Sequence record: OR670491
Length of the DNA stretch: 64,000 nt
From: Escherichia phage vB_EcoM_JNE01
Reading direction: 5' to 3' (one strand)
The translations under genes were made by a program, and so were the position numbers. The notes under the pieces were generated by a model. The model ran no database searches. It worked only from the letters and a program-made list of their open reading frames with translations, and had not been told where the DNA came from. Shown one piece after another: positions 39,493 through 63,982 of the stretch; positions within the stretch are counted from its first letter, which is position 1; each line of letters begins with the position of its first letter.

Positions 39493-39921
39493 ATGAATAT
39501 CGAACAAGTAATCCGCTCTAACGCTTTCTTCTCTGCTGAATCTGGTCGTGTTATCGAAGATATCAAAATCGAAGAACTGATGATCAACGTTAAGTACAAA
39601 GAACAGAACGAAGAAATGTCCAGCAGCATCTGTGCTCTACGTGCTCCATTCCGTAGTGAAAAAGCTAAGAAGCCAGCATATGTTCTAGCGATTGCTCTTG
39701 GTTGTGTAGTGAAGAAAGCAATTGACTCCAACCAACTAAATATCAAAGTTGCTCCAATGAACGATGAAGAGAACATCAACCTGGACTTCGACGGTCAACT
39801 GTCTGAAGAAGAATTCTTCCAGCTTTCTCTGATTCATGACTTCCGTAGCATCAACTTTGACCACATTCACTTCATCGACGAAATGGTTGAATTGGTTTCT
39901 CAGTACGAAGCTGAACTGTAA
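39493..39921 (+). CDS. family-A paralog (C-terminal EExFFQxS motif), unknown function
   Basis: C-terminal SEEEFFQLSLIHDF; RBS AAGGA. Confidence 0.55.
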   Translation: MNIEQVIRSNAFFSAESGRVIEDIKIEELMINVKYKEQNEEMSSSICALRAPFRSEKAKKPAYVLAIALGCVVKKAIDSNQLNIKVAPMNDEENINLDFDGQLSEEEFFQLSLIHDFRSINFDHIHFIDEMVELVSQYEAEL

Positions 39922-39935
39922 TAAGTAATAAAACA

Positions 39936-39960
39936 AGCCTCCTTGAAAGGGGGCTTTTGT
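39936..39960 (+). terminator. rho-independent terminator
   Basis: AGCCTCC-TTGAAA-GGGGGCT hairpin plus TTT. Confidence 0.55.
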
Positions 39961-39975
39961 CATAAGGATATGTAA

Positions 39976-40533
39976 ATGAAGTTAATAGAACAAATTCAAA
40001 CCCTATCAAATCAGATTGCAGAGTTCTTGTCTGATAAAGAAGGATTTAAAGTAGAAATCACACACCACGGTGTAGGTATTGTTGTAACTTATCCAAGTGG
40101 TGATACAATGGATTATGATGTGTATGAGCTATTGCTATACACCCTAGCAGTGCGTAAGCTCGGTAGTGATATCGAACTTAAAATCAACAAAGATGAAAAT
40201 GGTAATGAAGTTTTTGCAGTAAACACTGATGCTAAACTTGACATTCCTGCTGGATTCACTAAAATCAATGAATCATTTATTGGTTTTAAACATGATTCTA
40301 TTCAGAGTGTTTTTATTGGTCGTCAAATTGCAAACACCCAATTCCCATACACTGTTATGACATTGTATAAAAACGGCAACTGGATGCGTCAGGATTTGGT
40401 AATGGCTGAAGTACTGTATGCACTAACCCATGACCTAAGCCTTGAACTCGTTGATAGTGCATTCTGCTTTAAACGTATTCGCAAACTATCTGCTGACATT
40501 CAAGCGGAACTAAAAGAACTAAATGATAAATAA
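39976..40533 (+). CDS. hypothetical protein
   Basis: 185-aa ORF, RBS AAGGA; lacks the family-A motif. Confidence 0.5.
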   Translation: MKLIEQIQTLSNQIAEFLSDKEGFKVEITHHGVGIVVTYPSGDTMDYDVYELLLYTLAVRKLGSDIELKINKDENGNEVFAVNTDAKLDIPAGFTKINESFIGFKHDSIQSVFIGRQIANTQFPYTVMTLYKNGNWMRQDLVMAEVLYALTHDLSLELVDSAFCFKRIRKLSADIQAELKELNDK

Positions 40534-40649
40534 ATGTACCAGAAATGGTTAACATAATCATGTTACTTTCCTCCCTTATACAATAATGATTTGTTATTCC
40601 ACATTTTATTTTTTCATTTCTCTTTTTTCGTACAAATTCTTTTTCGTAC

Positions 40650-40672
40650 TGCCCCTACTTAGGGGCATTTTT
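40650..40672 (+). terminator. rho-independent terminator
   Basis: TGCCCCT-ACTT-AGGGGCA hairpin plus T5. Confidence 0.6.
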
Positions 40673-40690
40673 ATTGCCTAAAATAAAGTT

Positions 40691-40718
40691 TTGACATTTG
40701 GTGATTAGGTGATATAAT
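40691..40718 (+). promoter_or_regulatory. sigma70-type promoter
   Basis: TTGACA, 16-bp spacer, TATAAT. Confidence 0.6.
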
Positions 40719-40745
40719 ATTCATATACATCTTAGAGGATACATT

Positions 40746-41174
40746 ATGATTTTCGATTTGCATTCATTTTTTAATAAATTCAACGAAGCTGATATCCCTA
40801 CGTGGGACGTAAAAATCAATCACACTAATAAATCATTGTGGCTACATAAAGGTAATGAATCGATCCAGATGATGATTAATGATGATTATGATATCACCCG
40901 CTTCTACCACATGGAAGAAAACAAAACCTTCGTTAAGGTTGCTTTCGACATATCTGATGATAATCTGTTCATCAACGTTCTGTCAGCCGGTTCTCATGTC
41001 CTGGTTGATGCTAAAATCAAAGAGATTAGTACTATCAAAAGTGAGGAAGGATTGTTTCAACGATCTGTTATTGAAGACCTGTACAATGTAGAATACTCTG
41101 ATATTGTGAAGCTGAAGGCAATCGTGGATAGTCTTAAAGCAAAAGCAAAAGAACTCATCAAAGAGGTATACTAA
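40746..41174 (+). CDS. family-A paralog
   Basis: C-terminal SEEGLFQRSVIEDL. Confidence 0.5.
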   Translation: MIFDLHSFFNKFNEADIPTWDVKINHTNKSLWLHKGNESIQMMINDDYDITRFYHMEENKTFVKVAFDISDDNLFINVLSAGSHVLVDAKIKEISTIKSEEGLFQRSVIEDLYNVEYSDIVKLKAIVDSLKAKAKELIKEVY

Positions 41175-61659: not shown

Positions 61660-61732
61660 GCCTTCTTAACTCAGTTGGTAGAGTAATCGCCTTGTAAGCG
61701 ATAAGTCATCCGTTCAAGTCGGATAGAGGGCA
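61660..61732 (+). tRNA. tRNA-Thr (anticodon TGT)
   Basis: Acceptor GCCTTCT/AGAGGGC (one GU), D-arm ACTC-AGTTGGTA-GAGT, anticodon stem ATCGC/GCGAT with loop CTTGTAA, T-arm ATCCG-TTCAAGT-CGGAT. Confidence 0.8.
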
Positions 61733-61739
61733 CAAATTA

Positions 61740-61812
61740 GCCGACTTAGCTCAGTAGGTAGAGCAATCCCCTTGTAAGGGAAAGGTCACCAGTTCGATTC
61801 CGGTAGTCGGCA
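61740..61812 (+). tRNA. second tRNA with TGT anticodon loop (Thr-like)
   Basis: Perfect acceptor GCCGACT/AGTCGGC, D-arm GCTC-AGTAGGTA-GAGC, anticodon loop CTTGTAA on a 4-bp stem, T-loop TTCGATT with one stem mismatch. Confidence 0.65.
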
Positions 61813-61828
61813 CAAATAAAGGTGAACA

Positions 61829-62260
61829 ATGAAAATGAACATTGTAAAATTTGTTGATTATGTATTACAAAACGAAACATGGTCACTACACGATGTACAA
61901 GTAGAAGACGTTGGTGAAGTGCGTGTTTTTTGCTATGATCCAGAATTGAATGAAATCACTGATTTGAGTAAATGTTTTAATATTTTTATGGCTTATGAAC
62001 TCAATAAGAAGTTTTATTCAATTGATATGTATTTGAACACTGTTACATTTAGAATTTCTGAATATGATAATTTTAATGAAGATTATTATATTGATGAAAG
62101 CATTGAATTTAATGTAGATGATATAGACACTGAAGAAAAATTCTTTCAGTACTCTCTTGTTAATGACACATTGGGCTTGACATTTGATGACGTTAAAGCT
62201 ATACTTAAAGTTCAGAAATTGATTCCTGAAGATGTCCAAAATCCCTTACGTGAAGAATAA
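61829..62260 (+). CDS. family-A paralog
   Basis: C-terminal TEEKFFQYSLVNDT; RBS AAGGTGA. Confidence 0.5.
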   Translation: MKMNIVKFVDYVLQNETWSLHDVQVEDVGEVRVFCYDPELNEITDLSKCFNIFMAYELNKKFYSIDMYLNTVTFRISEYDNFNEDYYIDESIEFNVDDIDTEEKFFQYSLVNDTLGLTFDDVKAILKVQKLIPEDVQNPLREE

Positions 62261-62273
62261 TCTGGAGATATAA

Positions 62274-62468
62274 ATGTTTTTGAATTTACTAACTGTGTTT
62301 GGACGTACCTTACTATTAGCAGTAATTCATACACCTGGTATCACGAAGTTAGTTTCTTATAAGTTCAAAGAAGATTTACATAATGGTACTGAAAAGTATC
62401 TTCGTAAATTGAATAAAGATTTAGGTGTTAAAGAAACAACACCATTCAAGAAGTATAGTGACGATTAA
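62274..62468 (+). CDS. hypothetical protein
   Basis: 64-aa ORF, RBS GGAGA. Confidence 0.4.
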   Translation: MFLNLLTVFGRTLLLAVIHTPGITKLVSYKFKEDLHNGTEKYLRKLNKDLGVKETTPFKKYSDD

Positions 62469-62726
62469 AATATATTACCGAATAATTCAGTACTGGATAT
62501 GCTGTACTGATAGCTTCTAGCCAGTACTGGATTCCTCCTTTTTCACTAGAAGCTGTCACTTATTCATACGTTTGTTACCCTCATAGCACTCGTTGTTTCA
62601 AAAGGTATCTTATTACCCCCCTCTCGTAAGATACTTGAATTTAGTAGTTGACTTTTCAACTTCTTATATGTTATACTTAGGCTGAATCAAATGATTCGGC
62701 CTTTTTCTTTTTTAGGAGTGCTTTTA

Positions 62727-63149
62727 ATGAATTTCAGTACTACAAAAGAAGCGATAGCACATGCAACAGTTTCTATGTGTAAAGCCATTGCAGATGGAAA
62801 TTTTAACAAGGATATATACTACCAATTAAACGAACAACAAGTTGATATTAATTGTTATAATGAAAACGGTATGTGTACTTCATACGATAAAGCCAGTAAT
62901 ATCTTCTTTATGATCCGAGAGTTACCAAATGAACAATTATGTAAGTTCTATGCTGAAATTGATATGTATAAGAACTATATTAATTTCCAATTCTTGGATA
63001 TAGATCTATTTCGATTGGATATCACTTCTGATATGTTAAACCTAACAGAAGAAATGTTTTTCCAAATGAGCTTAGTTTACGATTTTAAGTACTTCGAATA
63101 TGAAACATTACGTAAGATATTTCAAGTAGCGGGGACTCTACATGAATAA
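62727..63149 (+). CDS. family-A paralog
   Basis: C-terminal TEEMFFQMSLVYDF; ATG 62727 after AGGAG (track start 62691 lies inside an upstream hairpin). Confidence 0.5.
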   Translation: MNFSTTKEAIAHATVSMCKAIADGNFNKDIYYQLNEQQVDINCYNENGMCTSYDKASNIFFMIRELPNEQLCKFYAEIDMYKNYINFQFLDIDLFRLDITSDMLNLTEEMFFQMSLVYDFKYFEYETLRKIFQVAGTLHE

Positions 63150-63561
63150 TAAGATTCTCAAGAAAATTTTAGATAGGACTGATATCTTCATTAAAGGTAG
63201 TGATGAAAATTACAACGTTCTGCATGATGGTGATATCGATACGCACATCTCATCTTATCTAAACAACTACCGTTGTAGTGTAAGTTATTGTAATAATATA
63301 GTTTTCGTAACAACATCTGAAACATTAGGATCGATTGGTTGGATTGACATTTTGGAGGATGGATTCACTTATGAAAATGAAGTCCTGGATTATACACTTG
63401 AATTCTACGACATTCAGGACTATAATTTAACAGAAGATGTGTACTTCCAGTTGAGTACTATCTATGATTTTGATATCATCGAATTTGAAGATTTGAAGAG
63501 AATCTTTAAGATTTGTGATTTTTTAAAAGGGAACCGAAATGAATCGACAATCGTTGCCTAA
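63142..63561 (+). CDS. family-A paralog
   Basis: C-terminal TEDVYFQLSTIYDF. Confidence 0.5.
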   Translation: MNNKILKKILDRTDIFIKGSDENYNVLHDGDIDTHISSYLNNYRCSVSYCNNIVFVTTSETLGSIGWIDILEDGFTYENEVLDYTLEFYDIQDYNLTEDVYFQLSTIYDFDIIEFEDLKRIFKICDFLKGNRNESTIVA

Positions 63562-63982
63562 AGAGCATGAGGACAACATCCTAAAGCGTTTGGATGAGAT
63601 CACCAACACCCCATTAAGTGTTCTGGAAGCGAACTACGATGCCAAATTCAAGCAGTTCTTGTTCAACAATAGTGAATGGTGGTACAGTACTCCAGAATTG
63701 GTTTGTGCTGTTAATGTGGGCGTAGGTGAGTATGAGTATGCTATTCACTATAACCAGAAGAACATAAGCATCATTGTTGATGAAATTGCAGAGTCTGATA
63801 AATGGCGTGATGATAACAGTATCTTAAGTATGGCTTTGAATTACAAAAATGATTCTGAATACTTTCAAGATAGTACTATCAAAGAGATTGAAGTATCTTA
63901 TAATGTAATAGAAAAGATGCGTGAATTTTGTTTGTACATACTAAAAGTGACAGAGGATCTCCAATGCAAGCATCCGAGATGA
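63539..63982 (+). CDS. family-A paralog
   Basis: C-terminal NDSEYFQDSTIKEI. Confidence 0.45.
   Translation: MNRQSLPKEHEDNILKRLDEITNTPLSVLEANYDAKFKQFLFNNSEWWYSTPELVCAVNVGVGEYEYAIHYNQKNISIIVDEIAESDKWRDDNSILSMALNYKNDSEYFQDSTIKEIEVSYNVIEKMREFCLYILKVTEDLQCKHPR

Follow-up and report, generated by a model that had tools for sequence, protein, structure and literature searches.

Why should one large phage keep, in a single region of its genome, well over a dozen short genes whose products, much diverged from one another, share a brief motif near the C-terminus? The question is raised by Escherichia phage vB_EcoM_JNE01 (sequence record OR670491), of which a stretch of 64,000 nucleotides, referred to here as the window, was analysed; the genes concerned lie between positions 39493 and 63982. 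A first-pass annotation, made from the letters alone, had described them as a seventeen-member paralogous family of small proteins with an invariant C-terminal motif and hypervariable N-terminal halves. Judged by its sequence, the window is that of an Asteriusvirus-type E. coli jumbo phage, and two of the proteins concerned are 100% identical to vB_EcoM_JNE01 proteins. In coliphages of this kind, with genomes of 350 kb, approximately 83% of genes have no known function (PMC7247149). The genes constitute a new protein family of uncharacterised function, an instance of the lineage-specific expansion of small accessory proteins that is already familiar in large viruses.

From the open reading frame (ORF) list and a MAFFT alignment, 18 paralogues of 121-167 amino acids (aa) were identified on the plus strand of this region. 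Their ORFs open at the first position given on each line below, except for those opening at 46839, 52506, 54433 and 62691, whose starts are better placed at 46851, 52521, 54460 and 62727 according to the annotation of the related Escherichia phage Turkey5 and the ribosome-binding sites. Each line gives the motif segment and the E value from leave-one-out profile searches, which were run against all 228 six-frame ORFs of the window; the tandem runs comprise 5, 3 and 3 members.

Member 1, 39493..39921 (+): 142 aa; motif SEEEFFQLSLIHDF; 100% identical to a vB_EcoM_JNE01 protein; E = 1.8e-8.
Member 2, 40746..41174 (+): 142 aa; motif SEEGLFQRSVIEDL; opens the five-gene tandem run, with a terminator and a perfect sigma70 consensus upstream; E = 9e-9.
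Member 3, 41174..41641 (+): 155 aa; motif NEESFFMESTMQNF, Gln replaced by Met; start overlaps the upstream stop codon; E = 9.2e-6.
Member 4, 41625..42002 (+): 125 aa; motif TEEELFQQSLIEAD; E = 6.1e-6.
Member 5, 42006..42461 (+): 151 aa; motif TEEGFFQESLVQNL; E = 6.9e-7.
Member 6, 42462..42908 (+): 148 aa; motif TEEALFQLSTIQDC; ends the run, upstream of a C5 methyltransferase gene; E = 1.9e-7.
Member 7, 46000..46452 (+): 150 aa; motif DDDFVFQQSTLTPL; the most divergent member; E = 0.31 (broad profile 2.7e-13); phrog_21500.
Member 8, 46851..47279 (+): 142 aa from the refined ATG (ORF opens 46839); motif FEEMIFQHLTT, Ser replaced by Leu; E = 0.003.
Member 9, 51584..51970 (+): 128 aa; motif SEEDEFQKLTT; terminator-like hairpin just upstream; E = 0.025 (broad profile 3.2e-11).
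Member 10, 52021..52524 (+): 167 aa; motif TDEAVHFQESLI; basic C-terminal extension, isoelectric point (pI) 7.8; E = 8.1e-6.
Member 11, 52521..52934 (+): 137 aa from the refined ATG (ORF opens 52506); motif EEEEFQYSLVQDE; E = 4.4e-4.
Member 12, 54460..54849 (+): 129 aa from the refined ATG (ORF opens 54433); motif TEEELFMKSTIQND; follows a tRNA-Leu gene; E = 7.9e-9.
Member 13, 56210..56575 (+): 121 aa; motif NEEAYFQMSTVQEP; E = 2.6e-4.
Member 14, 56758..57129 (+): 123 aa; motif DEEDEFQKSTVYEN; preceded by the copy of the repeated promoter that starts at 56572; E = 4.9e-6.
Member 15, 61829..62260 (+): 143 aa; motif TEEKFFQYSLVNDT; the member modelled by AlphaFold, following two tRNA-Thr genes; E = 9.5e-8.
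Member 16, 62727..63149 (+): 140 aa from the refined ATG, with AGGAG upstream (ORF opens 62691, inside a terminator hairpin); motif TEEMFFQMSLVYDF; E = 1.1e-6.
Member 17, 63142..63561 (+): 139 aa; motif TEDVYFQLSTIYDF; E = 4.4e-10.
Member 18, 63539..63982 (+): 147 aa; motif NDSEYFQDSTIKEI; the Turkey5 run goes on with three more members past the window end; E = 9.9e-6.

Fifteen of the 18 members were recovered at E < 1e-3 when left out of the profile, the weak cases being 46839 (E = 0.003), 51584 (0.025) and 46000 (0.31). A profile trained on the 18 members separates them from the other six-frame ORFs, but this separation is circular; shuffled ORFs reached a best E of 0.09 against the family profile. 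A broader 88-sequence profile, which takes in the 18 window members themselves, scored 18/18 at E values of 1e-9 to 1e-20 and none of the remaining window ORFs at E < 0.01. The family proposed by the first-pass annotation is present far above chance, with 18 members in place of 17. The reported divergence of the N-terminal halves is real, with approximately 13-25% identity to the first member and a mean of about 20% within the family, but these halves are still homologous, profile alignments extending over some 100 residues and the leave-one-out alignments covering residues ~36 to 135. The usual best non-member in the leave-one-out searches was an antisense ORF, 39736-39963 (minus strand), whose weak family matches (E down to 3e-4) are an artefact and which was rejected as a member: E-E-F-F is encoded by the palindrome GAAGAATTCTTC, so that the opposite strand also reads EEFF.

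The consensus motif across the 18 members is (T/S)-E-E-x-(F/Y/L)-F-Q-x-S-(L/T)-(I/V/L)-x-(D/N)-(F/L). To call it invariant was an overstatement, as the second Phe alone is strictly constant; Gln is replaced by Met in two members and Ser by Leu in two, and the EE pair varies in several. The constant Phe lies 30-44 residues from the C-terminus, rather than the motif lying 20-40 residues from it as first described. The motif codons vary synonymously (TCT, AGT and TCA for Ser, TTC and TTT for Phe, CAG and CAA for Gln, TTG and CTA for Leu), and selection has therefore conserved the protein and not a DNA element. A DNA-level repeat or palindrome, with GAAGAAnnnTTCTTC as a possible inverted repeat, was ruled out by the same variation, Ser being written with both TCN and AGY codons.

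What the motif does within the protein was approached through structure prediction. An AlphaFold model from 28 sequences had a predicted local distance difference test score (pLDDT) of 52 and was too poor for use, and one of member 61829 from 88 diverse sequences reached pLDDT 80 and a predicted template modelling (TM) score of 0.70; its block means are 84-97 for residues 51-130, 90-97 for residues 91-130 and 95-97 at the motif helix. This model comprises a helix at residues 5-15, strands at 51-58, 61-68, 71-80 and 85-95, and helices at 102-111, 119-129 and 134-142, of which 102-111 is the motif. Counted in the 88-sequence alignment and numbered as in the 61829 model, the columns of the motif are occupied as follows.

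Position 101: T/S, 67/88.
Position 102: E, 85/88.
Position 103: E, 76/88.
Position 105: F/Y/L, 78/88.
Position 106: F, 88/88.
Position 107: Q, 80/88; M, 8/88.
Position 109: S, 79/88.
Position 110: T/L, 84/88.
Position 111: I/V/L, 83/88.
Position 113: D/N, 80/88.
Position 114: F/L/I, 59/88.
Positions 115-116: often G.

The variable positions 104, 108 and 112 fall at i, i+4 and i+8 and form one stripe, the remaining helix positions being conserved. In the model this stripe looks like the exposed face of a helix that is mostly buried and capped and, because only one stripe varies, the motif looks like a structural keystone helix and not an exposed peptide or a detachable C-terminal tag. General helix rules suggest reading T/S-E-E as an N-terminal capping box, D-F-G as a C-cap and the aromatic and aliphatic residues as the buried face. 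Upstream of the motif, Asp45, Tyr79, Asp85 and alternating hydrophobic positions are conserved in the 88 sequences, as in strands, which argues for a single domain with a conserved core helix. The model and the conservation pattern thus point to a single globular domain, in place of the C-terminal anchor with hypervariable N-termini that was pictured at first. Fold comparison of a few members had also been proposed; with the one member modelled, there was no sequence match to a known family and only a weak p32-like fold match. In a Foldseek search of the PDB, p32-family chains ranked 1-9 at weak scores (E 0.03-0.12, TM 0.24-0.33), and in the BFVD fold library only uncharacterised Rak2-like phage proteins were matched.

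The statement that no characterised domain could be recognised is borne out by Pfam, NCBIfam, PADLOC and PDB sequence searches. Pfam gave no consistent match among the 18 window members and the 88 aligned members, NCBIfam and PADLOC gave scattered noise-like matches only (each family matching one or two members at most, at E >= 5e-4), and a PDB sequence profile search returned nothing below E = 0.5. The PHROG matches (phrog_17453, 23322, 24941, 24321, 27549, 21500, 30548 and others, with E down to 1e-66) are all labelled 'unknown function'. PHROGs hold the same proteins, split there into more than a dozen clusters without function, whereas the motif and the superfamily relationship are unrecorded; since members match one another's PHROGs, those clusters are related. 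One member of the 88-sequence alignment matches Pfam RecQ-1-like_HTH (E = 3.7e-12), as do none of the 18 window members or of 32 individually checked database members; it may carry a fused domain or not belong to the family at all. Descriptions of the family or motif were not found in the literature on PBECO4, Asteriusvirus, phAPEC6, RaK2, CBB, Munch, 121Q, Sharanji and fEgEco12. What has been noted is that paralogues abound in these phages (PMC3622015; PMC5259590), and an array of 'very similar genes', not further specified, has been reported in 121Q (PMC5646251). That array, put at >30 genes by Hua et al., probably does not correspond to the present family, which averages only about 20% identity.

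The profile search of protein databases suggested at first pass (HMMER, 1.84 billion cluster representatives) returned 89 proteins at E <= 1e-3, all of 64-217 aa, of which nearly all keep (T/S)EEx(F/Y/L)FQxS(L/T)(I/V/L)x(D/N)(F/L). By tblastn and BFVD, relatives were located in Asteriusvirus, Klebsiella phages (RaK2 group), Cronobacter GAP32 and Pectobacterium CBB, and further in Salmonella Munch, 7t3 and SE_PL and Klebsiella fENko-Kae01. A tblastn search with the profile consensus gave no match, probably owing to low-complexity masking. Matches labelled 'Escherichia coli' on contigs of approximately 350 kb are phage genomes inside bacterial assemblies. Among the sources and contexts examined, the family is confined to Rak2-like jumbo phages or AT-rich tandem-array contigs. 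At nucleotide level, megablast of 39493-47300 found 97.7% identity to Turkey5 over 87% of the query, and about 35 other Escherichia and Salmonella jumbo phages of 320-385 kb (PBECO4, 121Q, G17, phAPEC6; genus Asteriusvirus) matched the methyltransferase segment only, at approximately 80%. The loci compared carry the following numbers of members.

Turkey5 locus: 20 members, three of them past the window end.
phAPEC6 locus: 19 members.
Salmonella phage Munch locus: 14 members within 40 kb.
Metagenomic contig L006: 10 members within 8.9 kb, beside a C5 methyltransferase as in the window.

The strong expansion first noted in the window thus recurs in related phages, whose loci, where examined, hold about 14-20 copies, and from these copy numbers the expansion is old and has been retained. 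Syntenic one-to-one orthologues in phAPEC6 share 30-70% identity, the family having a median of 40% and the neighbouring genes one of 61%, and four members are without a phAPEC6 counterpart at the thresholds used. A tandem run of the family lies directly upstream of a C5 DNA methyltransferase gene in the window (40746-45455), in phAPEC6 (26072-30122 of L002) and in the unrelated metagenomic contig (603-7558 of L006), an arrangement that, read from sequence, reflects either conserved synteny or a functional link.

What, then, are the proteins like? They are strongly acidic, with a median pI of 4.6, 15 of the 18 members falling below pI 5 as compared with 30% of the remaining ORFs that reach 100 aa, and net charges of -7 to -19 in 16/18. 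None contains a hydrophobic segment, and as predicted from sequence the family proteins are soluble and cytoplasmic. Shine-Dalgarno-like sites precede 12/18 members and several starts overlap the preceding stop codon. Measured against Turkey5, the ratio of non-synonymous to synonymous substitution (dN/dS) is 0.20 for the family and 0.16 for neighbouring accessory genes (p = 0.22), or 0.07 with core genes included. These values indicate that the family is under purifying selection; over the short term it is no different from neighbouring accessory genes, and the term hypervariable does not suit it. The phAPEC6 counterparts are 19 ORFs within gp083c-gp134c, and 0/19 are among the 62 virion proteins identified by mass spectrometry (PMC7247149, Table 1), which within gp066-gp148 lists only gp077 and gp078c. 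The setting fits non-structural, possibly early, host-directed genes.

Transcription signals bear on this last point. Both the interleaving with tRNA genes and the repeated promoters of the first-pass annotation were found: ARAGORN makes 8 calls between 54282 and 61813, and TTGACTAAATAGTTCAGTACTGATAWAAT occurs at 55461, 56572, 57126 and 60106 as part of a near-identical 29-nt promoter of the extended -10 type, TTGACTAAATA(A/G)T(C/T)CAGTACTGATAWAAT, present in four copies. These and the other signals near family members are as follows.

55461..55489 (+): repeated promoter, copy 1.
56572..56600 (+): repeated promoter, copy 2, between members 13 and 14.
57126..57154 (+): repeated promoter, copy 3, overlapping the member 14 stop codon and directly upstream of the tRNA cluster.
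60106..60134 (+): repeated promoter, copy 4.
40650-40667, then 40691-40718 (+): terminator-like hairpin, then a perfect sigma70 consensus, TTGACA-16-TG-TATAAT, 28 nt upstream of member 2.
62648-62677 and 62679-62702 (+): promoter-like site (10/12 matches, with TG) and 10-bp terminator-like hairpin, upstream of the last three-member run.

Over the whole window, all 31 sigma70 sites that match at least 11/12 positions lie on the plus strand (0 on the minus), and their density at 39-64 kb is 2.5-fold that of 1-39 kb. In phAPEC6 and Munch, a sigma factor gene lies just downstream of the family region. In the equivalent region of CBB, RpoD-like promoters are concentrated among short hypothetical ORFs, together with the phage sigma factor gene, and the authors suspected early host-takeover genes there (PMC5259590).

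The explanation that we tentatively prefer, at somewhat less than an even chance, combines these strands of evidence into an ancient Rak2-like jumbo-phage family with a keystone-helix fold, diversified into early binders for host takeover or anti-defence. On this view the 18 genes, which are real paralogues of one lineage-specific family, would be expressed. Each product is predicted to be a single soluble acidic alpha/beta domain in which an N-terminal helix is followed by a 4-5-stranded antiparallel beta-meander and then by two to three C-terminal helices. The motif would form the first of these C-terminal helices, with F-F...L/T-I/V...F as its buried face, and would clamp the helices onto the sheet, possibly also serving as an oligomer interface, so that sequence variation would be concentrated on the sheet, loops and N-terminus. 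Transcription would proceed from sigma70-type promoters, probably early and by host RNA polymerase, and the products would remain in the infected cell and not enter the virion. There, the paralogues may differ in the host (or phage) macromolecule that their variable surfaces bind, and would together make up a diversified set of binders or inhibitors used in host takeover or anti-defence, possibly as acidic decoys for basic, nucleic-acid-binding proteins.

Several observations weigh against this explanation. Early timing is inferred solely from the promoter consensus and the suggestion of the CBB authors, and promoters of the same type also lie upstream of replication genes in other parts of the window. 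The helix has been assigned its role from a predicted model, whose N-terminal third is of low confidence (block means 53-70), and from periodicity; a functional site would account equally well for the strong conservation of five polar residues (E, E, Q, S, D). Acidity is common among phage proteins, and there is no arms-race signature, since short-term evolution is no faster than that of the neighbours. A bolder form of the explanation, which we regard as unlikely, holds that the proteins are a new fold-level class of acidic, possibly trimeric p32-like platforms, each of about 20 paralogues neutralising a different host defence or nucleic-acid-binding protein, and that together they form an arsenal specific to Rak2-like phages and built on one keystone helix.

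The conserved polar residues also speak for the reading given at first pass, that of a shared docking module, in which the E-E-x-F-F-Q-x-S-L/T-I/V surface binds one common partner and the variable remainder supplies cargo or adaptor specificity. Such residues (E 85/88, E 76/88, Q 80/88, S 79/88 and D/N 80/88) are kept across host genera and are rare in purely structural helices. In its concrete version, Q-x-S-L-(I/V) would imitate the bacterial beta-clamp-binding motif QL[SD]LF, and the Q-x-S-L-hydrophobic pattern does resemble that pentapeptide. The reading is nevertheless distinctly doubtful. The motif lies inside a confidently predicted helix (block means 95-97) amid folded elements and not in a disordered tail, and helix capping accounts for both T/S-E-E and D-F-G. 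As regards the clamp, Q and S match, but the full QL[SD]LF pattern and a location in a flexible terminus or linker are not found; position 4 is Thr in 47/88, and position 5 is I/V/L/M in 86/88 and Phe in 0/18 window members. Annotations also suggest that the phage encodes its own replisome.

About equally doubtful is the suggestion that the proteins are distant structural relatives of the p32 trimer: MAM33/p32-like acidic oligomeric chaperones or adaptors that serve the phage itself and do not attack the host, perhaps as escorts of basic DNA-condensing or nucleic-acid-binding proteins. The family shares with MAM33/p32 (gC1qBP; PF02330) a strongly acidic character and, in the predicted model, the order of elements, namely helix, meander and two helices, without evidence of membership. 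p32 has seven strands and forms a doughnut-shaped trimer, whereas the family model has 4-5 strands, and generic beta-meander proteins score almost as well in fold comparison. None of the 88 members (0/88) matches Pfam MAM33 at E <= 1. Homology was rejected after 13 genuine p32 sequences (PF02330) were aligned, as hhalign of the family against this vertebrate alignment gave no signal (probability 0.1%), although the p32 alignment is narrow (effective number of sequences ~1.9) and of limited power.

Improbable, too, are immunity-like arrays of the SUKH/SMI1 'polyimmunity' kind, in which each paralogue would neutralise a different toxin (from host abortive infection, contact-dependent inhibition, a bacteriocin or a competing phage). 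The tandem arrays of diverged, small, single-domain paralogues and the cytoplasmic, acidic proteins would suit such a role, and the layout is like that of SUKH/SMI1-KNR4 arrays, but the family is without structural support for this comparison. The single Pfam match, to SUKH_6, is marginal (E = 0.021), concerns just 1/88 members and lies below the family threshold, and a scan of neighbouring genes turned up no recognisable toxin gene.

We give as little credence to the proposal that the genes are dispensable filler, tandem duplicates that piled up once the capsid had enlarged, as in the ratchet idea of Hua et al. (2017), and that now drift with little function. Growth of jumbo phages by tandem duplication has been reported (PMC5646251), and the family is less similar to its phAPEC6 counterparts than the neighbours are (40% vs 61%), with four members lacking a counterpart at the thresholds used. 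Set against this are a dN/dS of 0.20, the retention of the motif across genera in about 90 diverged representatives, and one-to-one synteny with phAPEC6 despite 30-70% identity.

Least probable by far is that E-x-x-Y-F-Q is a protease site, like the ENLYFQ/S of tobacco etch virus (TEV), and the products internal virion proteins; we know of no NIa-like protease in these phages. Although 56210 (EEAYFQ) and 63142 (EDVYFQ) literally fit E-x-x-Y-x-Q and a capsid inner body occurs in this phage group (PMC7247149), the pattern fits 2/18 members only, the site would fall within a folded helix in the model, the 62 virion proteins of phAPEC6 include none of the family, and the prohead protease annotated in phAPEC6 belongs to the scaffold-core type.

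The surroundings of the family are of interest in their own right. The C5 cytosine DNA methyltransferase gene at 43566-45455 (+) encodes 629 aa and is intein-interrupted, Pfam DNA_methylase being split around Hint_2 (77-134) and LAGLIDADG_3 (294-357); the Turkey5 and phAPEC6 orthologues are intein-less and 861 nt long. A wider anti-defence island was considered and rejected, the NADAR label of the Turkey5 orthologue (98.8% identical) of 37394-37876 (+) being unsupported by Pfam at E <= 0.001, and the methyltransferase remains the only clear anti-restriction neighbour.

A second, smaller paralogous family is found at 55693-56179, 53979-54170 and 53094-53255 (+), without a Pfam match; it includes three tandem 54-aa genes with a 161-nt period and 79% DNA identity between copies, and related genes start MTHE(Q/E)WM.... 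This second family is kept in phAPEC6 (gp094c-096c). Within the tRNA cluster, ARAGORN places three tRNAs side by side at 57165-57432. One is an unusual 'tRNA-Ser' of 92 nt (anticodon ACT), and the others are read as tRNA-Met, of 90 and 73 nt; extra sequence or mis-assignment may explain the two longer ones, and the ORF at 57212-57448 that overlaps the calls is probably spurious. The gene at 57440-59137 (-) is the sole long minus-strand gene of the region, its 565-aa product having no Pfam match and 47% identity to a tail fibre/'bifunctional tail protein' of Klebsiella podophage Henu1; within the phage group it is common only to Escherichia phage UE-S1 (97%) and is not in Turkey5. These matches suggest a tailspike or depolymerase gene that was gained by horizontal transfer and came to lie among the tRNA genes. 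Beside the tRNA cluster, 59515-60084 (+) is a gene of the homing-endonuclease type (NUMOD4 and HNH_3), and HNH genes also occur in the tRNA regions of Turkey5 and Munch.

The family accounts for roughly 20 genes, or about 3% of the genome, in every relative examined, and its recognition simplifies annotation by uniting more than a dozen separate 'unknown' PHROGs in one superfamily, for which TEExFFQxS(L/T)(I/V)xDF provides a searchable signature. The paralogues are a tractable experimental set, and the invariant helix gives clear mutational controls with which to separate folding from function. If they have different targets, they would already amount to a library of proteins that bind host proteins or inhibit defences, and the finding would be considerably more interesting should those targets prove to be distinct host proteins; if the family is dispensable, it offers a good test case for jumbo-phage genome growth by tandem duplication. 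Members 56210 (EEAYFQ/M) and 63142 (EDVYFQ/L) fit the TEV site pattern E-x-x-Y-x-Q, probably by coincidence, and this is a hazard where TEV-cleavable tags are used.

Among known systems, the layout of the family recalls the poxvirus Bcl-2-like proteins and the multigene families (MGF) of African swine fever virus, which are lineage-specific multigene families of large viruses. In these, too, accessory or early regions hold many diverged paralogues of one fold, in which the core is conserved and the surfaces vary; the viral families differ in that immune-antagonist functions have been demonstrated for them, and in their fold and the domain of life of their hosts. T7 Ocr, T4 Arn, Ugi and ArdA are small acidic early phage inhibitors and DNA mimics, and the present proteins are likewise small and acidic, predicted to be cytoplasmic and apparently non-virion, with one of their runs lying beside a methyltransferase of the anti-restriction type.

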